Source: a virus (taxonomy: Duplodnaviria; Heunggongvirae; Uroviricota; Caudoviricetes). Taken from it: a stretch of 64,000 bases of DNA. Where the stretch lies: IMG/VR virus record IMGVR_UViG_3300010352_001127. One strand, written 5' to 3'. Position numbers and translations under genes: made by a program. Shown here in pieces: positions 1,048 through 61,827 of the stretch; position 1 is the first letter of the stretch, and each line of letters opens with the position of its first letter. Under the pieces are notes generated by a model that saw only the letters and a list, made by a program, of their open reading frames with translations, was not told the DNA's origin and searched no databases.

Positions 1048-1062
1048 TCTATATATTAAAAA
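1048..1062 (-). promoter_or_regulatory. Promoter-like box TCTATATATTAAAAA (coding orientation TTTTTAATATATAGA), 20 nt upstream of the GTG start of the 1..1028 gene
   Basis: One member of a recurrent motif found about 15-38 nt upstream of start codons throughout the window. Confidence 0.45.
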
Positions 1063-1082
1063 TTAAAGGAAGAAAAATAAAA

Positions 1083-1823
1083 TTACATTGTCGATGATAT
1101 TATGTTACAAACAACATCCTCGTAAACTTCATAAAATATATAAACTAGCCCGTCTCCACCAGCTCCAGGAACAGAAGCGTTTCCTGTTGTACCGTAAGCG
1201 CCACCTCCACCTCCGCCAGCTTGACGTCCATTGCCACCGAATAAAATTCCAGATGCTCCATTACCACCATTGCCCCCATATTGATTTCCACCATTTCCAC
1301 CAGCACCACCTACTACTCCGCCATTTCCACCTTTACTACCATTTTGTTCTGTTCCGGCTCCGCCTCCGCCGCCACCTCCACGAAGACTGACTCCACCAGC
1401 GCCACCATCGCCTCCATTGTAAGTAGCGTTATTTTCACCCCCTGTGCCTCCTACAGATCCAACACCACCAGCTCCACCAGCAACAGCTCTATTAACTCCT
1501 GTACCACCTCCACCAACAACTAAATTTGATGAATAATCTCCAACTTGACTTAATGATACATAACTATCACCTCCATTAATAACACTATTATTACCACCAG
1601 TACCAACAACTATTTTCATAGTTGTTGGAAGATTTGATGTGTAAGAGAACATGGCACTTCCGCCGCCTCCACCTCCTCCGCCTCCAGTGCTTGCTGCTCC
1701 TAAGGATCCTCTACCACCTCCCCCGATAACGTAAATGGTTAATCCCGTAGTTCCTTGAGGGACCTGTCGATAATAAGTTCCAGGTGTATCATACGTTAAA
1801 GTATCAGCTGGGATTGAATTCAT
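1083..1823 (-). CDS. Glycine-rich (poly-Gly/Gly-Ser/Ala) putative fibre or virion protein; start revised to ATG 1823 (the ORF-track start at 1910 is TTG and overlaps the upstream gene by 73 nt)
   Basis: Long low-complexity Gly tracts (GGGGRGSLGAASTGGGGGGGGGS, GGGGTGVNRAVAGGAGG). The internal ATG at 1823 removes the overlap with the 1838..2677 gene. Confidence 0.45.
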   Translation of the reverse strand: MNSIPADTLTYDTPGTYYRQVPQGTTGLTIYVIGGGGRGSLGAASTGGGGGGGGGSAMFSYTSNLPTTMKIVVGTGGNNSVINGGDSYVSLSQVGDYSSNLVVGGGGTGVNRAVAGGAGGVGSVGGTGGENNATYNGGDGGAGGVSLRGGGGGGGAGTEQNGSKGGNGGVVGGAGGNGGNQYGGNGGNGASGILFGGNGRQAGGGGGGAYGTTGNASVPGAGGDGLVYIFYEVYEDVVCNIISSTM

Positions 1824-1837
1824 ATTAATTATTTTTT

Positions 1838-2677
1838 TTATGTTCCTGTCAAAGTAACGACTAATTGATTGACAGTCCCTGACGCAGAAGCTATATACAA
1901 GGCTAACCAATCCCCAGCAGAAACGCTAGATCCAGTTTTTCCGCTTGCTCCACCCGTTGTTGCTACTATATCCGATCCAAACAAACTCGATGTAGATCCA
2001 ATAGCTCCATAATATATATTAAAAGTGGCACTCGTATTATTTTGAACATAAGCGTTAGCTACAGTCGGAGCATAAGACGCATTTAATCTGGGGCCTAATA
2101 TAACTCCAGGTCCCGGCGAAGACACTACCCAAGTAAAACTTCTTTCGGGGTATGTGCCAGATGTGCCTGATGAACCAGGACTACCAACGCCAGATGTTCC
2201 TGATGAACCAGGACTACCAACGCCAGATGTGCCACTTGTTCCGCTTGTTCCAGTAGTTATATTAGTTACTTCTTTCACAACATTTCCATCCAATACCAAT
2301 TTTGTACCGTTATCAGCTACAGTATCAACATTTGTCATAGTGAGAGTCGAACCAGTCATCCATATATTAGGAATATAAGATGTATTTGTCGCTGAATCCC
2401 AATAAAAATCTGGATCTGTAGCAAATGAATTATCTATAGTCTGCCATGTTCCAACTCCATTAGCATCTGAAGTTAAAACATATCCATTGGATTGTGATCC
2501 GTCCACTATTCTAATAGTGCCGCCAGAAACAACAATTTTTTGGTCTATCGACCAAGCAGCAGATGTTACACCAACACCAATTCTTTTATTGGTTTTGTCA
2601 ATCATAACAACATCCTCTAACATTAAAGATGTGTTACCAGTTTGAGTATATTCTGTATAAAATTTGGTTTGTGACAT
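1838..2677 (-). CDS. Fibre-like protein with a short collagen-like segment (GTSGTSGTSGVGSPGSSG x2) and a C-terminal Thr/Ser-rich beta-rich domain
   Basis: G-X-Y run with a duplicated PDVPDEPGLPT-encoding segment. Promoter-like box CTATATATAATTTT at 2697-2710 upstream. Confidence 0.5.
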   Translation of the reverse strand: MSQTKFYTEYTQTGNTSLMLEDVVMIDKTNKRIGVGVTSAAWSIDQKIVVSGGTIRIVDGSQSNGYVLTSDANGVGTWQTIDNSFATDPDFYWDSATNTSYIPNIWMTGSTLTMTNVDTVADNGTKLVLDGNVVKEVTNITTGTSGTSGTSGVGSPGSSGTSGVGSPGSSGTSGTYPERSFTWVVSSPGPGVILGPRLNASYAPTVANAYVQNNTSATFNIYYGAIGSTSSLFGSDIVATTGGASGKTGSSVSAGDWLALYIASASGTVNQLVVTLTGT

Positions 2678-2715
2678 TTAAAAATTTCTATTTTTACTAT
2701 ATATAATTTTTTTTG

Positions 2716-3900
2716 TTATGGAAAACATACAGCAACCGGTGTGCTTTTATTTGTAACTGAATTTATTCCTAATTCTCCAAAAGTATTTTCCCCCCAAGAC
2801 CAAGCTTTATTATTTTTATCTAAAGCCAAAGTATTATAACCACCGCTTATGAAATTGAAAGTATGATTTCCACAGACAGCGACCGGAGTTGATACACTTC
2901 CAGACGACGTGTTCGCGCCTAACTGTCCGTCGTTATTCCATCCCCAACACCACGCTTTTCCGTGATTATCTATCGCCATAGAATGATAATTACCAGCTTC
3001 TATATCGCAAAATGTATGACCTCCACAAACAGCCACCGGCGTACTTCTATTAGTTGATGTATTATCTCCCAAAGTACCAACATTGAAATTTGACCCCCAT
3101 GCCCAAGCTTTTCCATGATTGTCTATCGCTAATACGTGATGTTGTCCACAAGATATTTGACAAAATGTATGCGCTCCGCAAACAGCCACTGGTGTACTTC
3201 TATCTGTGGAAATATTATTACCTAAACATCCATACCCATTGTATCCCCATCCCCAAGCTTTGCCATGATTGTCTACGGATGACGAATGACGTTGTCCGCA
3301 ATCTATTAGACAGAATGTATGAGTCCCGTAGACTGCAATTGGTGTGCTTTTACATACCACAGTGTTATCTCCCAATTGTCCATAATTATTATCCCCCCAT
3401 GACCACAATTTACCATTATATCCTAATCCTAAAGTGTTATGACCTTCACTAGTATATCTTCCTCCTACTTTTATATAACAAAAAGTATGATCCCCGCAAA
3501 CAGCCACTGGTATAGATTTTCCATTGGTAGTATTATCTCCCAATTGTCCATAACTATTATTCCCCCAAGTCCAAGCTTTCCCGTCGGTATCTATGGCTGC
3601 GCTGTGTATCCCAGTGTCTATGGCAATAAAATTGCGATTACCAAAAACGGCTCGTGGAATACATTTATCACCGTGTTCATTAATGCCTAATTGTCCATAA
3701 CTATTATCTCCCCAAGTCCAAGCTTTGTTATAAACATCTAAAGCTATGCTATTAAAAGTTCTACCAACAATACTTACAAAATAATCAGTTGATCCAGAAT
3801 CTGTTAAATAAATTAAACAAGGAGACGATATTTCATACGCTATTTTACTATTTCGTAAAACTATTCTATAAATGGCCATAAAAAACAGATTTTTTATCAT
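2716..3900 (-). CDS. RCC1-repeat (beta-propeller) protein, probable fibre / receptor-binding component
   Basis: About 7 repeats of the W(T/A/S)WG.N.YGQLG.N pattern typical of RCC1 / alpha-tubulin-suppressor blades. Start ATG sits in the loop of an inverted repeat. Confidence 0.6.
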   Translation of the reverse strand: MIKNLFFMAIYRIVLRNSKIAYEISSPCLIYLTDSGSTDYFVSIVGRTFNSIALDVYNKAWTWGDNSYGQLGINEHGDKCIPRAVFGNRNFIAIDTGIHSAAIDTDGKAWTWGNNSYGQLGDNTTNGKSIPVAVCGDHTFCYIKVGGRYTSEGHNTLGLGYNGKLWSWGDNNYGQLGDNTVVCKSTPIAVYGTHTFCLIDCGQRHSSSVDNHGKAWGWGYNGYGCLGNNISTDRSTPVAVCGAHTFCQISCGQHHVLAIDNHGKAWAWGSNFNVGTLGDNTSTNRSTPVAVCGGHTFCDIEAGNYHSMAIDNHGKAWCWGWNNDGQLGANTSSGSVSTPVAVCGNHTFNFISGGYNTLALDKNNKAWSWGENTFGELGINSVTNKSTPVAVCFP

Positions 3901-3926
3901 TTTTATATATAAAAAATCTGTTTTCT
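3880..3926 (-). promoter_or_regulatory. Inverted repeat (16-nt arms AAAAAACAGATTTTTT / AAAAAATCTGTTTT) whose loop carries a TATATATA promoter-like box and the ATG of the 2716..3900 gene
   Basis: Arms 3880-3895 and 3911-3924 are reverse complements (14/16). The loop is ATCATTTTTATATAT. The element is homologous to the one at 16077-16120. Confidence 0.5.
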
Positions 3927-3945
3927 TAAAAACGAAATAATAGGA

Positions 3946-6930: not shown

Positions 6931-7269
6931 TTATGATGTTAATAAAACAGGCAAAATTGTAACCGTGCCGATAGCTGGTGTTGTTGGTTGACCAACAGTG
7001 TCAACAAGTCTTAACTCATGATAATAACTACCAGCTGTAATTCCAGTTGTATCAGCAGGTTCTAATGTCACTGTAACATTCTTACCAGACAATGTTATAC
7101 CAAAGCCACCAGACGTTTTTAAAATAGCCTGTGATCCAGTAGCTTCTTCTGTAGTGGACATAGCCCATTCGGCTGTTCCGCCAGTAACAGTAGATACATC
7201 CTCGATATAAAACACAATTTGTCTGTAGTTACCTTTCCATGTTGTAAAATCTTGATTTGTTTTTCCCAT
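6931..7269 (-). CDS. Hypothetical Thr/Gly-rich beta-rich (Ig-like?) small virion protein
   Basis: ORF directly downstream of the giant fibre gene; promoter-like box at 7291-7305. Confidence 0.35.
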   Translation of the reverse strand: MGKTNQDFTTWKGNYRQIVFYIEDVSTVTGGTAEWAMSTTEEATGSQAILKTSGGFGITLSGKNVTVTLEPADTTGITAGSYYHELRLVDTVGQPTTPAIGTVTILPVLLTS

Positions 7270-7290: not shown

Positions 7291-7305
7291 TTATATATTA
7301 AAAAA
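7291..7305 (-). promoter_or_regulatory. Promoter-like box TTATATATTAAAAA upstream of 6931..7269
   Basis: Motif family member. Confidence 0.4.
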
Positions 7306-16076: not shown

Positions 16077-16120
16077 AGAAAAACGGTTTTTTATACCTAT
16101 ATATAAAAAACCGTTTTTCT
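16077..16120 (-). terminator. Perfect 16-bp-arm hairpin (AGAAAAACGGTTTTTT / AAAAAACCGTTTTTCT) followed by a U-run on the minus-strand transcript. Likely a terminator of the pncA-nadR operon; its loop carries the TATATATA promoter-like box for the giant fibre gene
   Basis: Arms 16077-16092 and 16105-16120 are exact reverse complements. Loop ATACCTATATAT. On the minus strand the hairpin is followed by TTTTTAA then ATG. Confidence 0.55.
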
Positions 16121-18956: not shown

Positions 18957-18971
18957 CTTATATATTAAAAA
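18957..18971 (-). promoter_or_regulatory. Promoter-like box CTTATATATTAAAAA upstream of 18103..18942
   Basis: Motif family member, 15 nt upstream of the ATG. Confidence 0.45.
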
Positions 18972-27090: not shown

Positions 27091-27104
27091 CTATATATTA
27101 AAAA
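27091..27104 (-). promoter_or_regulatory. Promoter-like box CTATATATTAAAAA upstream of 26838..27068 (overlaps the stop codon of the 27098 gene)
   Basis: Motif family member. Confidence 0.45.
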
Positions 27105-28303: not shown

Positions 28304-28341
28304 TAATAAAATCAATTATTTTCTGTTTCTATATATAAAAT

Positions 28342-29298: not shown

Positions 29299-29343
29299 TT
29301 CAAATAATCATTTTCGCGTATATATTTTATTTTGTATCTGGTT

Positions 29344-30762: not shown

Positions 30763-30890
30763 AAATGAAAATTAATTTTTAATATATAATGCAAATTGCG
30801 GATTATAAATTGTTTTACAAAATTAATAAATTTAATTTAGATATTAAAAAATTTTATTAATTTTGTAAAAATAAAAGAATAAAAATATTT

Positions 30891-32039: not shown

Positions 32040-32083
32040 ACAAGACTGACCTTCTTTAATATATAAAGAAAAAAGGAAGTGTT

Positions 32084-37700: not shown

Positions 37701-37714
37701 TTAATATATAAATA
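37701..37714 (+). promoter_or_regulatory. Promoter-like box TTAATATATAAATA (contains the exact T4 late consensus TATAAATA) upstream of 37732..38880
   Basis: Motif family member, 18 nt upstream of the ATG. Confidence 0.5.
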
Positions 37715-42681: not shown

Positions 42682-42781
42682 TAGTTCTTTTATTTTCTTA
42701 GTATATATATTAAAAAAATTAAACACATTTTATAAAAGGTAATATAAATAAGAAAATTATGATTTTTATAAAATAATATAT

Positions 42782-42925
42782 ATGAATATGATAAACAAAG
42801 AAAAAATAACTATTTCCTTAGATAAAGAAATTATAGAAAAATTGGAAAAAATATCTGATGAACAATGCGTTAATAAAAGCAAATTCATAAATAAAATATT
42901 AAAAGAACATTTTAAAAAATTATGA
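42782..42925 (+). CDS. Ribbon-helix-helix (CopG/Arc-like) small DNA-binding protein, 47 aa; not in the ORF track; ATGA-coupled to 42922..44574
   Basis: MNMINKEKITISLDKEIIEKLEKISDEQCVNKSKFINKILKEHFKKL: beta-strand KITISL, helix, N-capped second helix. Paralogous to 47562..47702. Confidence 0.45.
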   Translation: MNMINKEKITISLDKEIIEKLEKISDEQCVNKSKFINKILKEHFKKL

Positions 42926-45319: not shown

Positions 45320-45344
45320 GTAATAATGTCTTTTTTTCTATATA

Positions 45345-45788
45345 TTAATTTTTATTATCTAAATATTTTTTAATTACAAAATCAAATAAATCTTTGTGTT
45401 TATTAAAATAATCATGTATTGGAATTAATAGAATATCTAGAACAATACGATATATATTGTCATCGTCTATTTTTTTAATGTTACCTTTTTTTATATTATA
45501 AGAAGGTCTGAATTCGAAATCCGATATCATATCCCACTCTCCGATTGTTCCAAAATAAACATATTCATTATCTCGTATTTTTAAATAAATTTCAAAAGAT
45601 GCTGATGTTAGAACAATTCGCGTTTTAGAAGTTTTTTTTACATATAAAGAGTTATCTAATTCTTTAAAATCAATTTCATCCCAGTCTTCCTCGCCATAAG
45701 GATCTAATGGATTATATGCGATAATTCGTTTTTTATTTCCAATAAATTTCAATTCTTCTGATATAACAAATTCTTCAAAAGTTACCAT
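45345..45788 (-). CDS. Hypothetical protein with an N-terminal DPYGEEDW motif
   Basis: …AYNPLDPYGEEDWDEIDF… (motif 45681-45704). Confidence 0.45.
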   Translation of the reverse strand: MVTFEEFVISEELKFIGNKKRIIAYNPLDPYGEEDWDEIDFKELDNSLYVKKTSKTRIVLTSASFEIYLKIRDNEYVYFGTIGEWDMISDFEFRPSYNIKKGNIKKIDDDNIYRIVLDILLIPIHDYFNKHKDLFDFVIKKYLDNKN

Positions 45789-46053: not shown

Positions 46054-46112
46054 CAACTTTATATATTAAATTTTGAAAAATTTTTTTTAATATATAAAAC
46101 TAAAACTCGTAA

Positions 46113-47702: not shown

Positions 47703-47765
47703 ATGACGATATTTTATTATTATATATTAAAATAAAAAGTCAAAAAATACCAATTTTGATAGCAT

Positions 47766-49489: not shown

Positions 49490-49545
49490 GAGTCTATATA
49501 TAAAAAACAGATATTAAAAAAAATAAAAACCAATTTGATTTTATT

Positions 49546-49559
49546 CTATATATAAAAGA
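49546..49559 (+). promoter_or_regulatory. Promoter-like box TCTATATATAAAAG upstream of the AAA+ gene; the divergent partner box GTCTATATATAAAAAA at 49494-49509 serves 48449..49489
   Basis: Motif family members in a divergent intergenic region. Confidence 0.45.
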
Positions 49560-51414: not shown

Positions 51415-51445
51415 AAAGGGGAGTTAAACTCCCCTTTTTTTATTA
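51415..51445 (+). terminator. Rho-independent terminator AAAAAGGGGAGTTaaACTCCCCTTTTTTT after hsp20
   Basis: 8-bp GC-rich stem plus T7. Confidence 0.75.
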
Positions 51446-51483
51446 GAAAAACAACTACATCTTTGGTGTTGATTGAGTCTGAG

Positions 51484-51600
51484 TCATTGGAATTGAATAT
51501 ATGCTCCAGCTCCCAAAACAATTGGAACAGCGGCTGTAAGAAGAGATTTCCTACTTATTTCTTCATTAACAAATTCGTCGTATTTTGAAAGATTATCCAT
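51484..51600 (-). CDS. Possible 38-aa membrane peptide (MDNLSKYDEFVNEEISRKSLLTAAVPIVLGAGAYIQFQ), TAATG-coupled to 51600..52631
   Basis: ATG shares one nt with the upstream stop; one TM-like segment. Not in the ORF track. Confidence 0.25.
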   Translation of the reverse strand: MDNLSKYDEFVNEEISRKSLLTAAVPIVLGAGAYIQFQ

Positions 51601-52631: not shown

Positions 52632-52641
52632 ATCTTTTTAA

Positions 52642-52776
52642 TTATTTTTCTTTTGCTTCTTCTTCATCTTTTTCGAGTTTTTCTTTCTCCTCTTTAGATT
52701 TGGTTTTCTTAGTTTTTTTATATATTACTTTGCCTTTTGAATAGGTAAATCCTTCAAACGTTTTTAAGTGTTTCAT
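52642..52776 (-). CDS. Possible 44-aa Lys/Glu-rich protein (MKHLKTFEGFTYSKGKVIYKK…), not in the ORF track
   Basis: Promoter-like box ACTATATATTAATT at about 52800-52814, 24 nt upstream. Stop lies 10 nt before the next ATG. Confidence 0.3.
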   Translation of the reverse strand: MKHLKTFEGFTYSKGKVIYKKTKKTKSKEEKEKLEKDEEEAKEK

Positions 52777-52886
52777 GACATTTAATTTTTTTTCTTGTAA
52801 CTATATATTAATTTAATTTTATCGATTTTTTTGTTGAAAAGAGGTCTCCATTTTTAATATATACAAATAAAAAGAAATTAAAAGAG

Positions 52887-55800
52887 ATGGAATCTGTAAA
52901 TTCGTTCATAACTCTAGCGGAGAAAATAACAAGGTTAAACGCTAATTGCGTTGAAATTTTAACAAAAACAAATGATTTAGTATCCAGTGAAAGCGATTCT
53001 GTTAAAATAGCTTATGATAATAATGGGGCTGTTAACACTTATTCACAACCAACTGTGGGATACTTAAAAAATCAAATAGACATTCTTAATCAGAATATGA
53101 AAAGAATGGCTTCTATTGAAGGATATACATATATAAGAGATGGTCAATCGTATAAGAGAATAATGACTTCCGACTTAAATAAAGAGCCAGCCCCTATCTC
53201 TGGCGTGGCTCAAGTCACTACATTCACCCCAATAAATAATCACTTTTTTGAGTCTCTTATGAATCCAATGTTGGCTGTTACTATAGATCTAACAGACAAA
53301 GTTGAGGAGGCTGTAAGAAAAATATTATCACGTAGATATATAGTAAGATTTGAAAAAAATGCTGATGGGAGTTTAACAGAAGCAGGATTAAGATCATTCA
53401 ACAGTTTCGCATCCACCTTTTTAAATAGAAGCGACATAAACATTACAGATTTCTTAGCTTGGTATAATAATCCAACAAATGACGGATTGGTTGTTGACAC
53501 TGTTGAACCTTATGACGAGCAAATATACGATCTTAAATTAAAGGAATTGAATTATTATGGAGTCTTTTCTGTTATTAAAGTTGAAATAGATGATATTAAT
53601 AATAAAATGTGGTATCACGTTAATGACATAAAATATTATGGAAAAGACGGTACAATAAAATCATTAGTCATTGGAGATGAATTAATTGTAAACAAATTAA
53701 ATGCAGGAACAAGGTATAGAGTAGTGGAAGTAAATACAGACTCTTCAAATACTAAAATAAGATTAGAAAATATAGAAGGATACGATCCAGTGGTTGTTGG
53801 TACTAATGTTTTAAAATATTATAGTGATATATCCAATCAGAAAAGTGTACAAATTGATATAGGTTTTGATGAATATATTGTTCAATTTGTTAAACCAATT
53901 AATACGGATGACAATATTATGGGAAGCCTTTGGAGTAATGGTATAAGTTTTTATACAAATGATTTGTTATTAGATACAAATAATAATATCAATTTATCTA
54001 ATTATTATATTCAAGCTGTTTATGATTATGGAACATGGCTTAGAGATAAACTCACTAAAAGCATGCCAACTGTTTACGGCACAACTCCTAATATTCCTGT
54101 TTTAGATGCCGATAATTTTAAAGTTGTTCAAATAAATAAACATTTGACAGATGATACAGATCAAGACACTTTGAAAAAATTACATTCTGACAAGTCTTCT
54201 GTTAAAACTAAGATATCTCAATTAAACTCTTCCATTGTTCAAAAAACTTCAAAATTAAATGCAGGCGGATTAACGACCAATGAAAAACAAACATACTTAA
54301 GTGAAATTAATAAATTGAAGACAGATTTGAGTGTTTCATCCAGTAATCTTTCTTCTTTATTAACTCAAATAAACGATCTTAATGTTGGAACTACTTCATC
54401 TACTGTATCTCCTAAATATAGAGTAAGAGGATTTTGGCGTATGCCCGAACCAATCATATCTGATAAAACATCACCACAACACGTTGTTCAATTTAGAATT
54501 CAATATAGATATAGCTCAAAGAGTGGCAATTCAAATAATATTCAAACTTTCAATTATGCGAAAGTTCAATCAACTTCAACTGTTTCTGTGACGCCAACAT
54601 CAACTTCAACAAATACAAATCTAAGTTCTAAAATTAGTGGTTCGGCTGCGGTCGCCGCGACTTCGACTGAAAATGTAGGCAAAACTGTTCCTGTTGCATC
54701 AACACAAGTTTCTACAACAACAGAAAATCCAGACAACGGACCTCAATATGCTAACTTCTCTAACTGGGTTGAAATTCTATCAGATGTTCGTAAACGTTAT
54801 TATGATGAAACCACTAAACAATGGTATTGGAAAATTGAAGACGTGTCTGATGCGGAAACTCCAAATATCAATCAATTAGATATCCCAATATCTGCAAATG
54901 AAAAAGTAGAAATCAGAGTTAAATCCATATCAGAAGTTGGATGGCCTGATTCTTTGATAGAATCAGACTGGAGTAATGTCTTAGCAGTAGATTTTCCAGA
55001 TGACTTAAAAGATGTTCTAAACGACAATCAATTCATTTTGGCGGAAGCTTCTCAAGATTCAACGACAGTAGCTTTGGAAACCACTTTAAGTAGTAAGGGT
55101 GTTGATAAACATGTCGCAGATAGTTATAATGTGAATCAAGATTATGTCGCTCATAAAGACACTAGTATAGCGGTAAGTATTAAATCAGATAATAGTCAAA
55201 ATATGAATTTATTCCAATATTTAACATATTTAACTAATAGAGTAGCTGCATTAGAGCAACAAATTGCTGGAACTCGTGGTACGCTTAACATCACACTTTA
55301 CAAAAAATCCACACTTCTTAAAAATATTACAAATAATACTACAACTAATATAAATATTGAGTGTGAAGATTATGGTACACAGTTAACTGGAACTGGTAGA
55401 ACTTATGTAAATTCCGTCTATGTTGTAGATGATTATGTAGTTTCTTTTGAAAATACAAATCAAAGCGGAAATCTCGGATTCTTATCAGCCAGATCGTATA
55501 CTAGTGGTGGAACAAATGCTTTCTATACAGATAACTTACATAAGATTTTGTTGGTTGATTACAATAGTAATTTATACACACAAAAAGATAATCAATTTAT
55601 ATGGTTTGCCGACAGGGATAGTAACGATTGGTTATCTAGTGGAGCAACAAATTTAAATCAAATTCAATATTATTTATCACATTCAACTTATAATATAGGA
55701 ACTTCCGGCTCATCTTCAACTGCGTTATATAATGTAAATAATTTATTCGTTGGTGGAGCGCCTCAAGTAAACGATCTTTTGTGTGCGGTATTTCCATATC

Positions 55801-56096
55801 TACCTGATTTGAGCACTTTTGTAGAAAATGGTCAAGATAAAACAAAGATTATAAAACCGCAGACTAAATTTAGTGTAGGTTTGAAAATATTCTTCAAATT
55901 CCAAGGAAATAAAACATCTTCAGAAACATTTTTAGTTGATGGAGCGACAAATAGCACTAAATCAAGAAAAATAAAATTCTGGTTTGAAACAAATGATAAT
56001 ACTACTTATCAATTTGTTATCAATTTCAATTTAAATAGATTTAGAACTTATTTAAAACCAAAAACTGATGTAAGTGCTGTTACTGACATTGTTTAA
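52887..56096 (+). CDS. Large virion structural protein candidate (1069 aa; baseplate or fibre class)
   Basis: Size, Thr/Ser/Asn-rich beta composition, and tandem position with 56113..60162 next to uvsW; no enzymatic motifs. Confidence 0.45.
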   Translation: MESVNSFITLAEKITRLNANCVEILTKTNDLVSSESDSVKIAYDNNGAVNTYSQPTVGYLKNQIDILNQNMKRMASIEGYTYIRDGQSYKRIMTSDLNKEPAPISGVAQVTTFTPINNHFFESLMNPMLAVTIDLTDKVEEAVRKILSRRYIVRFEKNADGSLTEAGLRSFNSFASTFLNRSDINITDFLAWYNNPTNDGLVVDTVEPYDEQIYDLKLKELNYYGVFSVIKVEIDDINNKMWYHVNDIKYYGKDGTIKSLVIGDELIVNKLNAGTRYRVVEVNTDSSNTKIRLENIEGYDPVVVGTNVLKYYSDISNQKSVQIDIGFDEYIVQFVKPINTDDNIMGSLWSNGISFYTNDLLLDTNNNINLSNYYIQAVYDYGTWLRDKLTKSMPTVYGTTPNIPVLDADNFKVVQINKHLTDDTDQDTLKKLHSDKSSVKTKISQLNSSIVQKTSKLNAGGLTTNEKQTYLSEINKLKTDLSVSSSNLSSLLTQINDLNVGTTSSTVSPKYRVRGFWRMPEPIISDKTSPQHVVQFRIQYRYSSKSGNSNNIQTFNYAKVQSTSTVSVTPTSTSTNTNLSSKISGSAAVAATSTENVGKTVPVASTQVSTTTENPDNGPQYANFSNWVEILSDVRKRYYDETTKQWYWKIEDVSDAETPNINQLDIPISANEKVEIRVKSISEVGWPDSLIESDWSNVLAVDFPDDLKDVLNDNQFILAEASQDSTTVALETTLSSKGVDKHVADSYNVNQDYVAHKDTSIAVSIKSDNSQNMNLFQYLTYLTNRVAALEQQIAGTRGTLNITLYKKSTLLKNITNNTTTNINIECEDYGTQLTGTGRTYVNSVYVVDDYVVSFENTNQSGNLGFLSARSYTSGGTNAFYTDNLHKILLVDYNSNLYTQKDNQFIWFADRDSNDWLSSGATNLNQIQYYLSHSTYNIGTSGSSSTALYNVNNLFVGGAPQVNDLLCAVFPYLPDLSTFVENGQDKTKIIKPQTKFSVGLKIFFKFQGNKTSSETFLVDGATNSTKSRKIKFWFETNDNTTYQFVINFNLNRFRTYLKPKTDVSAVTDIV

Positions 56097-56112
56097 AAAT
56101 TAAAATAACTTA

Positions 56113-59100
56113 ATGATAAATAAGAGTTTTCAGTTAATTAGAACAAATCCGTTATTAACATCAAATTTAAAAGTTGTTGTTGATTCTAATTATAAATTAT
56201 ACTTAGAAAGTTTTAATTCTAACAGTGATCTTAGCAATGTTAAATTCAAACATATGACTATGACTAAAACAGAATATTTGGAAGATAAAATTCCGAAATT
56301 CTATAAAGGTCTTCCGATAGATTTGGCTTTCGATGTTAAATACGATAACGATAATAAGGTTATTCAAAGTAAATACGATCATCAATTTGACACCACTTAT
56401 TTCTCGGGTGGAGCTTACGTTGAAGATCAATGGTATTCAGAAGAATTCGATTATTTGGCCCCTCTTTATATAAGAAAAGATTCTCTTCCAAAGGGATTTG
56501 TGATATTAAGAGTGGATGATCCTTCGGGATATAATCTTAATGTTAATAATTATTTTGAACTAAATAGTCTTTCATCTAGTAATTTTAAAGAAATAGTTGA
56601 TAACTGGAAATGTATAAAATTCTTTGATATGTCATATTCTTCTGATTTGGGATCGTGGTTAACTAATAATTACACCAACAACGCAAGATTTCCAAAGACT
56701 GCTTTTGAATATCATCCCGAACGCGCTGAATTTTCATATTGGTATGGAATGGATTATAAAACAGGTATTTATACATCACACCCAATATTTATGGATGATC
56801 GTGATGAAATTGAAACTCCTCATTTTAGATGGGAGAAATATATTACTGAGGGATACAAACAGAGTGGTATTATTTTCCCATTTATTTTAAATTTAAAATT
56901 TCTTTTTGATGACACACCAGCTACACCAGATACTCTTAGAAAATATTCTATGAATAGATATTTTGGTTTTTATGTTGATAGTATGGATTATGTTGGAAGT
57001 GTAACTTCATATAGAAGTCCTGCGATGATAGAGAATACTTATTTGGTTAATAATATTATAGTTTCTGGTTTCACTGGAATGACAACTGATCAAATATGTA
57101 GATTAGATTATTATGATATTCCAACGGTAAATCCTTTTACTGGAACATGGGATGATAGTAAACAATATTACGTTTTTGTTGACAATACTTCTGATTTTGA
57201 TCGAACAAAAACAATTTCTGGTTTATATCAAGTTCAAAGAGTTATGCAAAACAACAAATATGTCTATAAAGTTATTAGTGATGAAATATTAGATCCATAT
57301 TGGAACACTGGTTATACGAACATAAAAACAGTAGATATTAATTATACTGGAAATTATAACATAATAAGTGGAATCACAGACGATTTCTTCGTCGACAAAT
57401 ATATTGATTGTAATGGCTATGAAAAATATATGTATGGAGATCTTTATTTAATTGAAATAGGTGATAAATATCATGTTTTAAAATATAGTTCTGGAATGAC
57501 AGAAGAAAACGAACTGACTGTAGATCCATTAACGGGCGATCTTGAAGATTGGAAATACTATATTCAAACAGATTACGCTATAAATTTAGACTCTAAAAAT
57601 CTAGAATATTGGATATTAGGAAAAAATTCTGATTATTATAAACAAGTTCCTGTAGAAACGACTGTTGCTCCTCCTCTAACTTTTCCAATTTATAGAGTAA
57701 AATTTTCTGATATAAAAGATTTTGATTTTGAAAGAATTCATACTGGATATTCTGATTTCGATTATGAAAAATCTGAATATGTAGATACTACCGAAGAAAA
57801 ATTATGGGCTTTTGATTATAATGATCCGAGCATTCCACCAAGCAAACGCGTGGAAGAACCTGGTACTCCAGCCCAATATAAAATTAGTAACATTTCTTCC
57901 GAATACATCGCAGACGACGAGCTTTATGAAGTTTTTGACTTGGGGCAACAAAATACTTTTGCTGGAAGTAATAATACTGAAAATAAATTATACGAATTAA
58001 CAGACATATGGCGTAAAAATCAATCTATTTGTAAGTGGGGATTTATGGGGTCAATATCTCATTCTGACTACCCATATAAACTTAATAACAATTATGAAGT
58101 TGGTGGTCCTTATAATCGCACCTGTGATCCATTCTATACCATTCCCGATCCAGTATCAAAAAATATGGATTATTTTTACAGGCTTGGCAATTTTTATGAT
58201 GGAACAAGTGGAAGTACTGTTTATTATAAAAACCAAACGACCAATATTCAATATGATTTTGTAACAGGTCAAATAGGAAGCGGTTTTGATTTAGATGCGT
58301 ATTTTACTTTGAATTTTGACTATTTTACTTACTGGTTTAAAAACAAAGAATATTATGAAGAAAATGCTCAATTATATACAAGAAGTTATGACAAATATTC
58401 TGTATTTAATTATGGCGATGATAATGTTCCTTCTGTTACTTTATTTAAAGGGTTGAAAATCAAACTAAATGAAGTTCAAAATATTTATACAACAGAAGAC
58501 GGGAAAACAATAAACAAAATTCTTTTTGGAACCAAGTCCTATAATAATTATAAATTATCTATAATTTTTAATGAAAATTATGCGGGATTAAATACAGGTT
58601 TGTTGAATAACAAATATATTGATACTTCTAGAAATAGTATTAGTGTTATATTAAATGAAAAATATCAAAATGTATTAATCATATTAAATGCTATGATGTC
58701 GGGTGACACTATTGATAGTGGCACATTGAATGACACTAGTTTATTTAATGAAAAAGACGGATTATATTATGGAAAAAAATTAGATGGAAGTTTTATAACT
58801 GGAAATAATAGTTATAATCCTAATATATTTACAGCTTCTAATTTTATTAATGCTATAAATGATTACAATGTAGATTATGGATTATCAGTCAAATACTATT
58901 GGATAAAGGAATCAGATGAGATAATCTATACTGGAAACACAACAGCCAATAATTTTGGAAACTCTTCGATGTCTAATATTCCAGAATGGCCTTATAATTT
59001 TATGCCTTTTATTCTAACAATAGAAACTCCCGTACCGATGAGTTTGAATAATAACTGTTACACAACATATCCCTATTATGTGAATAGTGTTCAAGATGAT

Positions 59101-60162
59101 TATGTTGCTACATTACTAACATTTAACGAAAATAGAAACGAAAAAACTTTAATATACAGATTTTCTGGTCCATACGAACCAGTTTTCAAAGACATAAGTT
59201 TATTTGAAGGTGGATATTTTTGTTATAATAATATACAAGCTACAACGGGAGTTACAATGAGTGGCGCAACTCAATCAAACGCTTCAGCTTCTTTTGAATT
59301 TCCATCAACTCCGCCCGCTCAATGGGAAGGATTTGAAAAAATATGTAGCGTTGATGGTGGATACATTCAAATTAACTTTCCTCCCACAGGAGGCGATACT
59401 ACTTCAAAATTCTTATGTATAAGAGGTTTTGATTTTTCAATAATTCCTCCAGATGCTATAATAAATGGAATAGAAATGTCATTGACAAGAAAATCCTTTG
59501 CTTATGTGCCTCAAAACGATCCACTTGGAATTTATGTTCAAGATAGTGTTGTATGCCTAGCAAGAACTTGTTATGATACTACTTTATTATCGGACAACAA
59601 AGCTAATCAGGGATCTATTTTAGATAATCCATTAATTCCATATTGGTCGACAACACAGCAAACAGTAAAATATGGTAGTCCTACAGACTTTTGGGGCGAT
59701 GGTCCGACTCCACCAGGAACTCCCGGTGCTTGGAGTGGATCGACTTTAAAAGGAATAGATGTGAGCAATCCTTTATTTGGAATAGTTATGGCTGTTAGTA
59801 TGAGAAATAGTGGAACTACTGATAAGAGTATGATATTGCCACAAATACAATGTGCCCAATTGAAAATATATTACTCATGGAATACGGTTGTTTATACTGC
59901 AACGGACACAGTTTATTTTGATAATAACTATAAATTCGATACAAACTTAAATGATTTTGGTGAAATAGATGAGTTAATTTATTCAAAAGTGAATGAAAAT
60001 TCTGATATATTGAAAGATTCACCAGATATATATCATATATATCCATCGATAGACGAGTTTGGATATGAATATGGTGAAAGATTTATATTCAAATCTTCGT
60101 GGGATAAAGAATTCTTTACTAAAACCAATAACAGTTTAAAAGAGGATTCAGGACATGTGTGA
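56113..60162 (+). CDS. Large virion structural protein candidate (1349 aa)
   Basis: As above; 16-nt spacing implies co-transcription. Confidence 0.45.
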   Translation: MINKSFQLIRTNPLLTSNLKVVVDSNYKLYLESFNSNSDLSNVKFKHMTMTKTEYLEDKIPKFYKGLPIDLAFDVKYDNDNKVIQSKYDHQFDTTYFSGGAYVEDQWYSEEFDYLAPLYIRKDSLPKGFVILRVDDPSGYNLNVNNYFELNSLSSSNFKEIVDNWKCIKFFDMSYSSDLGSWLTNNYTNNARFPKTAFEYHPERAEFSYWYGMDYKTGIYTSHPIFMDDRDEIETPHFRWEKYITEGYKQSGIIFPFILNLKFLFDDTPATPDTLRKYSMNRYFGFYVDSMDYVGSVTSYRSPAMIENTYLVNNIIVSGFTGMTTDQICRLDYYDIPTVNPFTGTWDDSKQYYVFVDNTSDFDRTKTISGLYQVQRVMQNNKYVYKVISDEILDPYWNTGYTNIKTVDINYTGNYNIISGITDDFFVDKYIDCNGYEKYMYGDLYLIEIGDKYHVLKYSSGMTEENELTVDPLTGDLEDWKYYIQTDYAINLDSKNLEYWILGKNSDYYKQVPVETTVAPPLTFPIYRVKFSDIKDFDFERIHTGYSDFDYEKSEYVDTTEEKLWAFDYNDPSIPPSKRVEEPGTPAQYKISNISSEYIADDELYEVFDLGQQNTFAGSNNTENKLYELTDIWRKNQSICKWGFMGSISHSDYPYKLNNNYEVGGPYNRTCDPFYTIPDPVSKNMDYFYRLGNFYDGTSGSTVYYKNQTTNIQYDFVTGQIGSGFDLDAYFTLNFDYFTYWFKNKEYYEENAQLYTRSYDKYSVFNYGDDNVPSVTLFKGLKIKLNEVQNIYTTEDGKTINKILFGTKSYNNYKLSIIFNENYAGLNTGLLNNKYIDTSRNSISVILNEKYQNVLIILNAMMSGDTIDSGTLNDTSLFNEKDGLYYGKKLDGSFITGNNSYNPNIFTASNFINAINDYNVDYGLSVKYYWIKESDEIIYTGNTTANNFGNSSMSNIPEWPYNFMPFILTIETPVPMSLNNNCYTTYPYYVNSVQDDYVATLLTFNENRNEKTLIYRFSGPYEPVFKDISLFEGGYFCYNNIQATTGVTMSGATQSNASASFEFPSTPPAQWEGFEKICSVDGGYIQINFPPTGGDTTSKFLCIRGFDFSIIPPDAIINGIEMSLTRKSFAYVPQNDPLGIYVQDSVVCLARTCYDTTLLSDNKANQGSILDNPLIPYWSTTQQTVKYGSPTDFWGDGPTPPGTPGAWSGSTLKGIDVSNPLFGIVMAVSMRNSGTTDKSMILPQIQCAQLKIYYSWNTVVYTATDTVYFDNNYKFDTNLNDFGEIDELIYSKVNENSDILKDSPDIYHIYPSIDEFGYEYGERFIFKSSWDKEFFTKTNNSLKEDSGHV

Positions 60163-60615
60163 TCACTCGAGATCGGTTAACTGATATAGAGTTATTTTAT
60201 TTTTAACCGCAAAATTCAAATTATCTATATTTTTGAGAGTTTCTCTCAAGAACTCTATATGATTATCTAATATGTCCTTTTTATGATCATGAGACGCTAA
60301 TTCCCACTCAATCAATTTCATTCTTTCGGAAGCGTTTGTGATATATGGAGCTTGATTTCCAATATAATATTCAAATCTTTGCTTTCTAAAAGATTTGATT
60401 TTCGGCATCATTTTATATATCTGATAAGACATATTTTTTATTTGCTCTGATACTTGTTGGCGAAGACTTATAATCTCAGCCTGAAGTGGAACAACTTCTT
60501 TTGCACTACAAACCATTTTCTTTGTCAGAGATTCAACTGTAGCATTCCAATAATTTTCAGATTCTTCTAATTTTGATATTAATTTATCGACACCTTCTTC
60601 TTCGAGTTCGGCCAT
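60163..60615 (-). CDS. Hypothetical coiled-coil protein
   Basis: Heptad-rich sequence; convergent with the structural genes. Confidence 0.4.
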   Translation of the reverse strand: MAELEEEGVDKLISKLEESENYWNATVESLTKKMVCSAKEVVPLQAEIISLRQQVSEQIKNMSYQIYKMMPKIKSFRKQRFEYYIGNQAPYITNASERMKLIEWELASHDHKKDILDNHIEFLRETLKNIDNLNFAVKNKITLYQLTDLE

Positions 60616-60657
60616 ATTGATTTTTTTATTTTTATAGGACTTTAATATAAAATTGTT

Positions 60658-61401
60658 TTATATTTTCTTATAAGAAATTGTAAAATAGTAATCAAACTTA
60701 AATTGACTAACATCTTTTGTTTGATTATAAATTATTTTAACTGTGTCCAAATTGCTTAGATAATCTGGAGTTATTATGTTAACGTTCGGAATTCTATATT
60801 TAACACTAAAAACAGATTTATTAAAATTTGGGCGCTTTAAAGCTTGATTCTTATCGAAAATAGTAGCACTATTAACAACATCGAAATAATTCGCATAGAA
60901 TACTAATTCTGATATATTATATCTGTTTAGCATATTAACATCAATATAATTATTGATATAGGTGTCTATATTTCTTTCCACCAAATCTTCACTTCTAACA
61001 GTCTTAAACACTCTGTTTTCTTTTAATCTTAAAAATAAATATTCTCTTAATATATTTTTAGCGTTAATGATTATTATCCATTCAAAATTTAGATTCTTAT
61101 CTGAAGTAGTTTCGTTTTGACTATAAATATCAATTGAATGATTTTCATATTTAATATCATCCAACCCTCTTGTTATATTAATTTCTGGATGTAAAATATT
61201 GGTATCATAATATTGATAATGATCGTTTTGAATATTTACTTTATCAACTATTTCTGAATATTGTATAGACATATCATTAATATAAATTTGATCTTCGATA
61301 TCAATAAGTTTACTTCCAAAGAAACTTTTTATTTCTGTAGCTGAGCGAGTGCCGTTTGTTGGAACGGTTTCATATTTTCTTATTATTAAATTACTTTTCA
61401 T
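60658..61401 (-). CDS. Hypothetical protein; start revised to ATG 61401 (ATGA overlap with upstream stop; ORF-track start is TTG)
   Basis: MKSNLIIRKYETV… after the revision. Confidence 0.4.
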   Translation of the reverse strand: MKSNLIIRKYETVPTNGTRSATEIKSFFGSKLIDIEDQIYINDMSIQYSEIVDKVNIQNDHYQYYDTNILHPEINITRGLDDIKYENHSIDIYSQNETTSDKNLNFEWIIIINAKNILREYLFLRLKENRVFKTVRSEDLVERNIDTYINNYIDVNMLNRYNISELVFYANYFDVVNSATIFDKNQALKRPNFNKSVFSVKYRIPNVNIITPDYLSNLDTVKIIYNQTKDVSQFKFDYYFTISYKKI

Positions 61402-61733
61402 CTCCAAATTTCCTCTCCATAAGGATCTATATTATATTGTTCGTAATTTTTTACTAAATTCACTTTTTCGTTTGTTAATTCTACATCACCGTTATCATAA
61501 AGTGTAAATACTCCATATTGATAACTCATCCAGTCATAATTAAAAGCCATATCCTTTATCGCGTTTACATCTTTATCATGAATCTTGGGATTATTTTTTT
61601 CTAAATAATCTTTCGGATCTTTTTTTTTAGCTACAAAATATCCAACGATTTTTCTATTCGGATCTTCCCATTTCTCTTCGCTGTAAGGATCTAATTCATT
61701 AGTTTCGTTTAAAAATCTCTTCACGTGTTTCAT
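61398..61733 (-). CDS. Hypothetical protein carrying the DPY(G/S)EE.W motif at both termini
   Basis: N-terminal …NELDPYSEEKWEDP (61668-61691) and C-terminal …NIDPYGEEIWR* (61404-61427). Confidence 0.45.
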   Translation of the reverse strand: MKHVKRFLNETNELDPYSEEKWEDPNRKIVGYFVAKKKDPKDYLEKNNPKIHDKDVNAIKDMAFNYDWMSYQYGVFTLYDNGDVELTNEKVNLVKNYEQYNIDPYGEEIWR

Positions 61734-61757
61734 TTCTTCTATCGATATCTTTTCTTC

Positions 61758-61771
61758 TATATATTAAAATG
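61758..61771 (-). promoter_or_regulatory. Promoter-like box TTCTATATATTAAAATG upstream of 61398..61733; partner box TTAATATATATATTTT at 61808-61823 lies directly upstream of uvsW
   Basis: Motif family members. Confidence 0.45.
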
Positions 61772-61827
61772 TCAAAAGCTAATTTCAAAAAATAAACATT
61801 TGGCTCATAATTTAATATATATATTTT

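Follow-up and report, generated by a model that had tools for sequence, protein, structure and literature searches.

The window analyzed here, a 64-kb (64,000-nucleotide) stretch of DNA, is part of the genome of a Bacteroidota-infecting, T4-core "Mahaphage" megaphage. It contains about 24-25 intergenic copies of the box tttT(A/T)ATATATA(G/A), which heads some 24 of its roughly 33 transcription units. Genes headed by the box include those for the neck protein gp13, collagen-like fibers, large proteins of 1069 and 1349 aa, and UvsW and UvsY. The individual sites, with the distance from box to start codon, are as follows:

1050..1058, minus strand: box TAATATATA, 21 nt to the start codon GTG (1028-1026); the collagen-like ORF runs off the start of the window
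2698..2706, minus strand: variant TTATATATA, 20 nt to the ATG of a 279-aa gene (1838-2677)
3904..3912, minus strand: box TTATATATA at a hairpin apex, upstream of an RCC1-repeat gene (2716-3900); first ATG at 3 nt, second at 27 nt
7292..7300, minus strand: box TAATATATA, 22 nt to the ATG of 6931-7269, first gene of a two-gene unit
16098..16106, minus strand: box TTATATATA, 27 nt to the ATG of a 2913-aa collagen-repeat gene (7329-16070); a 24-bp hairpin has the box at its apex
18959..18967, minus strand: box TAATATATA, 16 nt to the ATG of 18103-18942, followed by a NadR-like gene (17126-18106)
27092..27100, minus strand: box TAATATATA, 23 nt to the ATG of a 76-aa ORF (26838-27068); the unit includes an M28-type peptidase gene
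28330..28338, minus strand: box TTATATATA, 26 nt to the ATG of a 401-aa gene (27098-28303)
29319..29327, minus strand: weak variant AAATATATA, 20 nt to the ATG of 28342-29298; variant shared with the capsid gene of relatives
30780..30788, plus strand: distal box TAATATATA, 102 nt to the ATG of a peptidase gene (30891); a host-type promoter lies closer to that gene
32057..32065, plus strand: box TAATATATA, 18 nt to the ATG of 32084-32545
37702..37710, plus strand: box TAATATATA, 21 nt to the ATG of 37732-38880, a CarboxypepD_reg domain protein
42704..42712, minus strand: box TAATATATA, 22 nt to the ATG of 42442-42681, first gene of a three-gene unit
42774..42782, plus strand: box TAATATATA, leaderless class, exactly 5 nt to the ATG (42788) of a small ORF
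45339..45347, minus strand: box TAATATATA, 19 nt to the ATG of a T4 gp13-like neck gene (44558-45319); kept in LR756501
46060..46068, minus strand: box TAATATATA, 6 nt to the ATG of 45805-46053; forms a back-to-back pair with the 46088 box
46088..46096, plus strand: box TAATATATA, 16 nt to the ATG of 46113-46712
47721..47729, minus strand: box TAATATATA, 18 nt to the ATG of a 47-aa ORF (47559-47702), with a DUF7487 gene (46691-47581) next
49495..49503, minus strand: box TTATATATA, leaderless class, exactly 5 nt to the ATG of 48449-49489; kept in LR756501
49546..49554, plus strand: variant CTATATATA, 24 nt to the ATG of an AAA ATPase gene (49579)
49547..49555, minus strand: box TTATATATA, second distal copy for 48449-49489, at 57 nt; kept in LR756501
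52802..52810, minus strand: box TAATATATA, 25 nt to the ATG of a 44-aa ORF (52642-52776); the unit includes 51600-52631
52855..52863, plus strand: box TAATATATA, 23 nt to the ATG of genes for probable virion proteins of 1069 and 1349 aa (52887-60162)
61758..61766, minus strand: box TAATATATA, 24 nt to the ATG of 61398-61733; last gene of the unit UvsY-like (60163-60615)
61813..61821, plus strand: box TAATATATA, 6 nt to the ATG of the UvsW helicase gene (61828)

Variant forms of the box are found at 2698-2706 (ATTATATATA), at 3904, 16098, 28330 and 49495 (TTTATATATA), at 49546 (TCTATATATA) and at 29319-29327 (AAAATATATA). The plus-strand variant at 49546 has a palindromic core in common with the minus-strand box at 49547-49555. 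By eye, the small ORF at 42788 has a ribbon-helix-helix look, and an HNH endonuclease gene (42922-44574) lies next to it; homing endonuclease genes are common near copies of the box.

The original prediction claimed at least 25 intergenic boxes, always oriented with the downstream gene. The coordinates it listed are nearly all right within 1-4 nt, but several correspond to variants of the consensus it gave. The orientation holds for 23 of the 24 curated sites, which have a same-strand start codon 3-57 nt downstream; the seemingly orphan site at 1058 precedes the GTG-start collagen-like ORF by 21 nt. The box placed on the minus strand at 30779 really lies on the plus strand, 102 nt upstream of the plus-strand gene at 30891. 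Back-to-back copies at divergent gene pairs were recovered as described (46060/46088, 49546/49555, 52802/52855, 61758/61813 and 42704/42774).

The exact sequence TTAATATATA occurs 17 times in the window against 1.04 expected, a count reached by none of 100 dinucleotide shuffles. A 22-nt matrix trained on the related genome LR756501 alone, with which the window was scanned at 12 bits or more, yielded 22 noncoding matches against 0.44 expected under a first-order Markov model of the window's own noncoding DNA (24% GC) and a maximum of 3 in 100 simulations. For all but one of these sites, a start codon follows within 60 nt. The same scan gave 5 matches against 1.45 expected in "coding" DNA, two of which (27100 and 45347) are actually intergenic. 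Equal density inside coding regions, which had been named as an argument against the promoter reading, is thus not what is seen.

The phage in the window is known from a 93-kb contig, and its closest complete relative is the 735-kb genome LR756501 (71% protein identity for one shared protein), where the box is genome-wide and interspersed along the whole sequence. T[AT]ATATATA occurs there 289 times, with 233 copies in the 8% of the genome that is noncoding and 191 having a same-strand gene start within 60 nt. The box is also carried by LR756502 and LR756500. Across seven intergenic regions orthologous between the window and LR756501, the core of the box is 97% identical, as opposed to 58% for the sequence upstream and 67% for that downstream.

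The distance from box to ATG in LR756501 is bimodal, with a broad peak at 15-24 nt and 34 sites, the leaderless class (about 18% of box sites), at exactly 5 nt. The genes following these 34 sites fall into 24 BLAST clusters, and hence the 5-nt spike does not stem from one duplicated family. An A located 6 nt past the box is conserved in both spacing classes, and the sole conserved downstream positions of the leadered class (A, A) align with the A of the ATG in the leaderless class; in the window, A is found at the putative +1 in 21 of 24 sites, as against 10 of 24 at -1. The spike and the matching A together place the box at -14 to -6, with its final A on -6, so that transcription would start on the A 6 nt after it. 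The T4-type TATAAATA that had been pointed out inside the 37701 copy is out of this register and a coincidence. The box sites share no conserved -35 hexamer; upstream they show just a T-run and, around -33 to -31, a weak AAA. Taken together, the orientation, fixed spacing, A at the presumed +1, phylogenetic footprint and terminators directly preceding many copies support the original reading of the box as a promoter.

A second promoter class, TTTTTTTA-N16-17-TAnnTTTG, precedes most genes for replication and metabolism and corresponds to the sigma-A type of Bacteroidota, whose -7 box is TAnnTTTG (PMC9723704). The TA..TTTG element is found 54 times in sense against 19 in antisense upstream of box-less genes, and 26 against 26 otherwise. 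These promoters lie 14-30 nt before start codons, with an A-rich leader devoid of a Shine-Dalgarno sequence, and in the window they serve, for instance, the TonB/PnuC and PRPP-synthase units. The sigma70-like contexts originally attributed to box-less genes are really of this type, with a T-run upstream of TAnnTTTG; sigma-70 sites of the E. coli type number 125 against 122.6 expected and so show no enrichment.

The division of genes between the two classes supports the proposed early versus late distinction. The box directly precedes the portal, protease/scaffold and terminase genes of LR756501 and L033, and the capsid gene of both has the variant AAATATATA. Neck and collagen-fiber genes are also preceded by it, as are gp13 and the collagen-repeat proteins in the window. 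The box is absent before the genes for DNA polymerase, primase, gp46, NrdA, gp32 and RNase H. Among T4 homologs, 7 of 11 late-type genes carry it against 3 of 15 early-type ones (Fisher p = 0.043). Exceptions that carry the box are topoisomerase II and the clamp-loader unit in LR756501 and, in the window, the AAA ATPase gene, the homing-endonuclease cassettes and the unit of the NadR-like gene.

LR756501 encodes, at 69450-69824 and adjoining the gp4, portal and capsid genes, a 124-aa protein whose identity as a gp55-like sigma is supported by several searches. It matches the gp55 HMM with E = 0.003, family-to-family HHalign comparison gives a probability of 93% (E = 3e-7), and T4 gp55 is its best match among 177,635 distinct PDB sequences. 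The best fold match of its AlphaFold model (pLDDT 84) is also T4 gp55 (7d7c_F; probability 1.00, TM 0.68), followed by sigma region-2 domains. The gp55-type sigma of the original prediction thus has a counterpart in the relative; none of the scanned window ORFs is gp55-like. The gp33 homolog suggested along with it was not detected with a 44-sequence profile, nor was gp45 with phmmer. Neither an RpoD-like sigma nor any ORF resembling RpoB, RpoC or T7 RNAP turned up in LR756501 or the window with single-sequence queries, which could miss very divergent proteins. This agrees with the picture of group 2 jumbo phages (including Lak-B8 and PTm1), which encode minimal sigma factors but no RNA polymerase (Iyer et al. 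2021, PMC7824862).

We consider it probable that the box acts as the -10-like part of a phage-specific, T4-late-type promoter that lacks a -35 element. Its most likely reader is a small gp55-family sigma encoded by the phage, with the 124-aa protein as the candidate in LR756501. The promoter would comprise a T-run, T(-14), A/T(-13), A T A T A T A ending at -6, usually G/A at -5, and a start A 6 nt past the box. The RNA polymerase core of the Bacteroidota host would join the phage sigma, little more than a region-2-like domain, in a holoenzyme that recognizes the box and initiates at that A. Most transcripts would then carry an A-rich leader of 15-20 nt that lacks a Shine-Dalgarno sequence, and a minority would begin on the AUG itself. 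Host sigma-A-type promoters would drive fewer units, with metabolic and replication genes, and these would presumably be expressed earlier.

It is also conceivable, if rather unlikely, that the promoter is phage-specific but not gp55-dependent or not late. Other phage-directed machinery, for instance a modified host holoenzyme or an RNA polymerase or sigma too divergent to have been recognized, would then use it as a general promoter, continuously or from middle to late infection. The box is the majority class in LR756501 (it precedes 187 genes, the host-type box 69), so a general phage promoter active from mid-infection would fit too. The exceptional non-structural genes listed above point in the same direction, as do the failure to detect gp33 and gp45 and the lack of recognizable function in more than half of the ORFs of these genomes. 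Against this stand the gp55-like sigma encoded by the lineage, the agreement of the box with the gp55 target in sequence and register, the undetectable polymerase and RpoD-like sigma, and the presence of the box before core virion genes and its absence from most replication genes. Recognition by an alternative Bacteroidota sigma, or by a variant mode of sigma-A, seems improbable: several sigma factors can bind AT-rich -10-like boxes, but sigma-A promoters form a separate class upstream of box-less genes in the same genomes, and the box has neither their G nor a -33 element, nor are sigma-70 sites enriched.

Least probable, and by our estimate very improbable, is a non-promoter role for an AT-rich palindrome, be it as terminator apex, site for a regulator or nucleoid protein, recombination or homing target, or translation signal. 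In favor of such a role, TATATA reads the same on both strands, long hairpins (z = -8.8 and -5.1) have a copy at their apex in two cases, many copies come directly after terminators, and homing endonuclease genes are frequent nearby. Most copies, however, have no hairpin, and the asymmetric flanks (T-run, G/A at -5, A at +1) match the orientation of the downstream gene in 23 of the 24 window sites. The 5-nt ATG spike and the matching A of leadered sites suggest an initiation point rather than a binding site, and in the leadered class the box is too distant and too fixed in sequence for a ribosome-binding signal.

Among known systems, the early promoters of phiKZ and AR9 consist of AT-rich TATATTAC- and TATATTAT-like boxes served by phage multisubunit RNA polymerases; these phages encode their own polymerases and are not known to encode a sigma. 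The likeness lies in a short AT-rich box after a T/A run, used genome-wide in a giant phage, but the present lineage has no detected RpoB/RpoC-like ORF and belongs to a T4-core group without RNA polymerase (PMC7824862). Bacteroidota sigma-A promoters (PMC9723704) share the type of A-rich leader. They differ from the box in the G at the 3' end, the T-run 16-17 nt upstream and a metabolic and replicative gene set.

T4 late promoters, on which gp55 acts together with gp33 and the gp45 clamp, are a close parallel. The T4 element TATAAATA, T/A(-13) A T A A A T A(-6), and the box are both A/T-only, lack a -35 element and lie at the same presumed distance from the start point, with seven of eight positions identical once either A or T is accepted at -13, where T4 is known to vary (PMC1524935). 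As in T4, genes for head, neck and tail as well as UvsW have the box upstream, and a gp55-family sigma is encoded in the lineage. In this register only -9 differs (T instead of A, creating an alternating TATATA core), which bears out the description of the box as a T4 variant, and a conserved T at -14 and the upstream T-run are additional. The sigma has 124 aa against 185 for T4 gp55 and lacks the C-terminal clamp-binding tail SLDFLYEAND, ending instead in a conserved ISLDS..G.HNF of its own; undetected gp33 and gp45, the leaderless sites and a host in the Bacteroidota also set this lineage apart from T4. Lineage-specific drift of the late box alongside a diverged gp55 has precedent (PMC1524935), as in the T4-related and jumbo phages Aeh1 (CTAAATA), CBB and GAP32 (both ATAAATA). 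The jumbo phage CBB, where gp33 and gp45 are also undetected, encodes a gp55-like sigma and has its box, with A/T-rich downstream sequence, before structural genes (PMC5259590). These boxes retain the AAATA half, inside which the change seen here falls (ATATA), and belong to phages of Proteobacteria with Shine-Dalgarno-led mRNAs and no reported leaderless class. The box is a lineage-specific variant of an already known promoter type, a useful but fairly ordinary addition to it.

The promoter-like box TWATATATA is present in the window well beyond chance expectation. The exact string TTAATATATA occurs 17 times, against 1.04 expected copies, and a 22-nt matrix, trained exclusively on the closest complete genome (LR756501, 735 kb) to avoid circularity and then used to scan the window with a cut-off of at least 12 bits, yields 22 matches in noncoding DNA, where a first-order Markov model of this 24%-GC fraction predicts 0.44. 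The same scan gives five nominally coding matches versus 1.45 expected, and two of these five are in truth intergenic. Our curated set for the window comprises 24 strong sites and one weak variant. Numbered from the putative transcription start, ATATATA at -12 to -6 is invariant in 24 of 24 sites, position -14 is T in 23 of them, position -13 is either A (17 sites) or T (7 sites), and positions -16 and -15 are mostly T. Every curated site but one is followed, 3-57 nt further on, by a start codon on the same strand; the single exception, 30780(+), is 102 nt away from its gene, which has in addition a proximal promoter of a second, host-type class. We count about 24 units headed by the box among the roughly 33 transcription units of the window. 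The box coordinates of the original prediction were essentially right, with the copy at 30779 assigned to the wrong strand (it is on the plus strand) and several sites being variants of the proposed consensus. The pattern T[AT]ATATATA occurs 289 times in LR756501, with 233 copies within the noncoding 8% of the genome, and 191 box copies are followed within 60 nt by the start of a gene on the same strand; the T4 box TATAAATA is found 253 times in this genome, 44 of them in noncoding DNA.

Comparison of the window with LR756501 over seven orthologous intergenic regions reveals that the 9-nt core is 97% identical, with 58% identity in the 30 nt upstream of it and 67% in the 30 nt downstream. The box is likewise enriched upstream of genes in LR756502 and LR756500. 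No clear enrichment of TWATATATA was detected in a region of Prevotella phage Lak-A2 (155939-198014), which is 50% coding with the standard code and 92% coding when TAG is read as sense, and TATAAATA shows there at most a weak sense bias upstream of genes that is not significant at 25% GC. We consider it very probable that the box is a real, conserved and oriented promoter element; that it should have some role other than a promoter appears very unlikely.

Some sites in the window display a peculiar architecture. At 49546-49555, a single palindromic TATATATA core is common to two overlapping, oppositely oriented boxes, read as CTATATATA on the plus strand for an AAA ATPase gene and as TTATATATA on the minus strand for a 346-aa gene. 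Two further boxes sit at the apex of long, AU-rich minus-strand hairpins, each followed by a U-run, one at 16071-16135 (24-bp perfect stem, -26.7 kcal/mol, z = -8.8) and one at 3874-3935 (-16.4 kcal/mol, z = -5.1). These hairpins look like terminators that close the preceding unit and enclose the promoter of the next one, and transcripts begun at the apex boxes would carry the descending hairpin arm only. Scans of the window for tRNA genes and Rfam families found nothing, and hence the 'orphan' site at 1058 is not an RNA-gene promoter.

The window (64 kb, 33% GC, 93% coding) corresponds, in reverse complement, to a portion of the 93-kb metagenomic contig k141_908908 (ENA ERZ27257423). Its 1069-aa protein shares 71% identity with homologues in the 735-kb 'uncultured phage' genomes LR756501 and LR756503, 36% with those of the 630-640-kb genomes LR756502 and LR745206, about 30% with Prevotella Lak megaphages and 27% with Sphingomonas phage PAU. 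These phages belong to the Mahaphage clade, for which Bacteroidetes have been predicted as hosts (PMC7162821). A T4-like core is apparent in the window, and includes the gp13 neck protein, an intein-bearing UvsW, a UvsY-like protein and a DNA ligase interrupted by an HNH gene. The archaeal TATA box and giant-virus promoter that the AT-rich box had first brought to mind were dropped, since the proteins match megaphages and T4 core genes. The N/S/T-rich composition of the 1069-aa and 1349-aa proteins suggests that they may be virion proteins; the possibility that they are divergent RNA polymerase subunits was rejected on finding neither PDB sequence hits nor catalytic motifs.

The accessory repertoire of the window includes a TonB receptor, PnuC, a NadR-like protein, PRPP synthetase, PPK2, M28 peptidases, HSP20, PspC, RCC1 repeats and two collagen-repeat proteins. 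A NAD-salvage set, made up of the NadR-like protein (17126-18106, minus strand; cytidylyltransferase-like and AAA_28 domains), PnuC (19755-20324, minus) and PRPP synthetase (36656-37597, minus), adjoins the TonB-dependent receptor. The larger collagen triple-helix repeat protein (7329-16070, minus; 2913 aa; Pfam Collagen E = 8e-189) is encoded at about 50% GC inside a 33%-GC window, with long overlapping alternative-frame ORFs within the gene, and the second collagen-like ORF (3-1028, minus) has a GTG start (1028-1026) and continues past the window edge. Mobile elements are dense (42788-44574, plus; 46691-47702, minus; 32559-33856, minus; 61828-62865, plus). Two HNH/DUF7487 endonuclease genes each lie behind a small ORF with its own box, whose product looks by eye like a ribbon-helix-helix protein; an HNH gene also adjoins the short DNA-ligase ORF, and Hint/intein domains are found inside UvsW.

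In LR756501, the spacing between the final A of the box and the first base of the ATG follows a bimodal distribution, with a spike of 34 sites at exactly 5 nt and a second, broad peak spanning 15-24 nt. By BLAST, the 34 genes of the spike form 24 clusters, and an origin of this spike in a single duplicated gene family was rejected for this reason. Among the sites of the broad, leadered peak, conservation downstream of the box is limited to two A's, exactly at the offset taken by the A of the leaderless ATG. The inferred +1 is A in 21 of the 24 window sites, versus 10 of 24 one base upstream. The simplest reading is that initiation would take place 6 nt after the box, in which case the 5-nt class would correspond to leaderless mRNAs. 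Taken together, the 5-nt spike, the conserved A of leadered sites and the A found in the window place the box at a predicted register of -14 to -6 from the start. The 5-nt spike would allow a transcription start to be located on sequence evidence alone, a prediction that metatranscriptomes already available could be used to check. Bacteroidota are known to make leaderless mRNAs, though uncommonly, with a share of about 5.5% in Flavobacterium psychrophilum (PMC9723704). Examples of the 5-nt class occur at 132555, 176557, 669514 and 681149 of LR756501 and at 42788 and 48449-49489 of the window. Many leaderless-class proteins of LR756501 begin with M-[IL]-K-K-Y-x-x-F despite their 24 BLAST clusters, and conservation in the DNA logo of this class persists about 20 nt past the ATG, which may reflect either a signal acting at the nucleotide level in leaderless initiation or an N-terminal motif common to these proteins.

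Genes devoid of the box tend to carry a second type of promoter. The pattern TA..TTTG appears upstream of box-less genes of LR756501 in 54 sense versus 19 antisense instances and shows no sense bias upstream of box-carrying genes (26 versus 26). Its full form, aTTTTTTtA-N16-17-TAnnTTTG, is located 14-30 nt before the ATG, and Bacteroidota sigma-A has TAnnTTTG as its -7 box (PMC9723704). Seven sites of this class were identified in the window.

Host-type (TAnnTTTG) promoter sites in the window
17110-17117, minus strand: TAnnTTTG-type site of the unit starting at 17105
23413-23420, minus strand: TAnnTTTG-type site of the TonB/PBP/PnuC unit
30818-30825, minus strand: TAnnTTTG-type site of a 472-aa gene
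30858-30865, plus strand: TAnnTTTG-type site, the proximal site of a peptidase gene
34749-34756, minus strand: variant TATCTTCG, GC-rich 204-aa gene
37648-37655, minus strand: TAnnTTTG-type site of the PRPP synthetase-PPK2 unit
40298-40305, minus strand: TAnnTTTG-type site of a metallophosphatase gene

The sigma70-like contexts originally ascribed to box-less genes did not hold up, and host-type promoters of the Bacteroidota kind were found instead. E. coli-type sigma-70 sites (TTGACA-N16-18-TATAAT) are not enriched in 42001-62000 of the window (125 versus 122.6 expected). Recognition of the box itself by a host sigma factor is very improbable. As an E. coli-type sigma-70 promoter it was rejected on this lack of enrichment and on the want of a conserved -35; as a Bacteroidota sigma-A promoter, because it contains no G and TAnnTTTG constitutes a class of its own ahead of other genes. 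Sites of the two classes are intermingled throughout LR756501, where 187 genes carry the box, 69 the host-type box and 18 both, which led us to reject their regional segregation. A strong Shine-Dalgarno sequence (AAAGGAGGT) sets the hsp20 gene (50940-51413, plus) apart from its neighbours, and the region upstream of it (50854-50939) contains no exact match to either promoter class; this gene may be a recent acquisition from a non-Bacteroidota bacterium.

T4 proteins were placed on LR756501 by phmmer, counting direct or operon-head boxes, and the box was found in 7 of 11 late-gene homologues versus 3 of 15 early-gene homologues (Fisher p = 0.043). It directly precedes the portal (spacing 22), protease/scaffold (24) and terminase (20) genes, and the major capsid gene has it as the variant AAATATATA (spacing 21); another relative maintains the same arrangement at its portal, protease/scaffold, terminase and capsid genes. 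No box was found in LR756501 before the genes for primase, DNA polymerase, gp46, NrdA, DHFR, gp32 and RNase H. The early versus late distinction drawn in the original prediction is supported: the box is on virion genes and mostly absent from replication genes, with topoisomerase II and the clamp-loader unit of LR756501, which carry it, as exceptions. Window genes behind the box include gp13, both collagen-repeat proteins, the 1069-aa and 1349-aa proteins, UvsW (a late gene in T4) and the UvsY unit, and the PRPP-synthase, ligase and TonB units are without it.

Queries with T4 gp55 by tblastn and phmmer did not reach the megaphage genomes. An HMM built from 120 gp55 homologues picked a single ORF of LR756501 (69450-69824, 124 aa, E = 0.003), immediately ahead of the genes for gp4, portal, protease and capsid. 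The encoded protein has 93 metagenomic homologues, some of them on megaphage-sized contigs, and the adjoining portal and capsid genes are kept in other contigs. HHalign relates this family to the gp55 family with a probability of 93% (E = 3e-7), covering gp55 residues 7-107, and T4 gp55 (7d7c_F) is the best match of the family profile among 177,635 distinct PDB sequences (E = 0.034). The AlphaFold model of the 124-aa protein (pLDDT 84) likewise resembles 7d7c_F most closely in fold (probability 1.00, TM 0.68), and sigma region-2 domains come next, among them sigma-E region 2 on a -10 element. The PHROGs 'late sigma transcription factor' is the best family, weakly (E = 0.19), and Pfam returned nothing useful for this protein. 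A gp55-family sigma is thus encoded by the nearest complete genome, LR756501, and not by the window itself. The C-terminal clamp-binding motif of T4 gp55, SLDFLYEAND, is absent from the 124-aa protein, which has instead a conserved C-terminus ISLDS..G.HNF. The region upstream of its gene (225 nt; LR756501 69226-69449) contains neither promoter class, which hints at a third, perhaps middle, class.

Regarding the remaining machinery, the gp44 clamp loader was detected in LR756501 by phmmer (E = 1.4e-20), and gp45 and gp62 were not found in this search. A gp33 profile of 44 homologues, close T4 relatives only, gave nothing below E = 0.85 in LR756501 or the window. No RpoD-like sigma was found in either, and T7 RNAP, RpoB and RpoC had no match at E <= 1 in their six-frame ORFs, a search that very divergent enzymes could escape. 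The box as promoter of a phage-encoded RNA polymerase, T7-like or phiKZ/AR9-like, was rejected on finding no polymerase ORF, in agreement with the description of group 2 jumbo phages as lacking RNA polymerase and encoding minimal sigma factors and a gp33 orthologue; group 2.2 includes Lak-B8 and PTm1 (Iyer et al., PMC7824862).

We lean towards a most likely mechanism in which, judging from the sequence data, the host core polymerase equipped with a phage gp55-like minimal sigma would recognise the box, and box-driven expression would be late, or at least post-early. The gp55-type sigma put forward in the original prediction finds support in the gp55-like protein of LR756501 (HHalign, PDB and fold matches), and is weakened by the failure to detect gp33 and gp45. 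The main rival accepts a phage-specific promoter and doubts either its gp55 dependence or its late timing. It can appeal to the missing gp33 and gp45, to the box being the majority promoter and to the presence of some non-structural genes behind it, and we regard it as possible, if on the doubtful side. Extending the gp55-like mechanism, the 124-aa protein might be self-sufficient, dispensing with gp33 and the clamp, and drive most of the genome from the TWATATATA box, the virion genes being just a part of it, with about one fifth of transcripts leaderless and bearing a shared nucleotide-level signal right behind the AUG. [quoted passage not shown]

At 630-735 kb, Mahaphage genomes surpass all other phage genomes known in size; these phages are uncultured, and a function has yet to be assigned to more than half of the genes. 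The two promoter classes provide a means to sort hundreds of these genes into presumptive early (host sigma-A-type) and late (TWATATATA) sets, and help to delimit transcription units and to correct start codons, examples being the GTG at 1028 and, for the RCC1 gene, its second ATG. Both the promoter type and the sigma family were already known, and hence concepts are unchanged; the value of the box lies in the annotation of the largest phage genomes. The literature searched holds no description of this motif or of Lak/Mahaphage promoters, which makes the box a new lineage-specific variant of a known promoter type.

As originally predicted, the box is well accounted for as a variant of the T4 late promoter. 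The latter consists of TATAAATA at -13 to -6, with A or T at -13 in many T4 relatives (PMC1524935), and the megaphage box is a short, A/T-only box resembling it. When the two are aligned by their last A, WATATATA differs from the WATAAATA of T4 solely at -9, a single substitution in the inferred register. Logos of the 191 LR756501 sites show a T-run beside the box, a weak AAA near -33 to -31 and no conserved -35 hexamer, which T4 late promoters likewise lack. Such drift has a parallel in phage Aeh1, which combines the late box CTAAATA with a diverged gp55 (PMC1524935). In the jumbo phage CBB, ATAAATA stands ahead of structural genes and a gp55-like sigma is encoded, with gp33 and gp45 undetected, as in the megaphage lineage (PMC5259590). 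The T4 late-transcription model, based on a minimal sigma and a single -10-like box, would thus extend to Bacteroidota megaphages, with a drift of the late box as small as one base.
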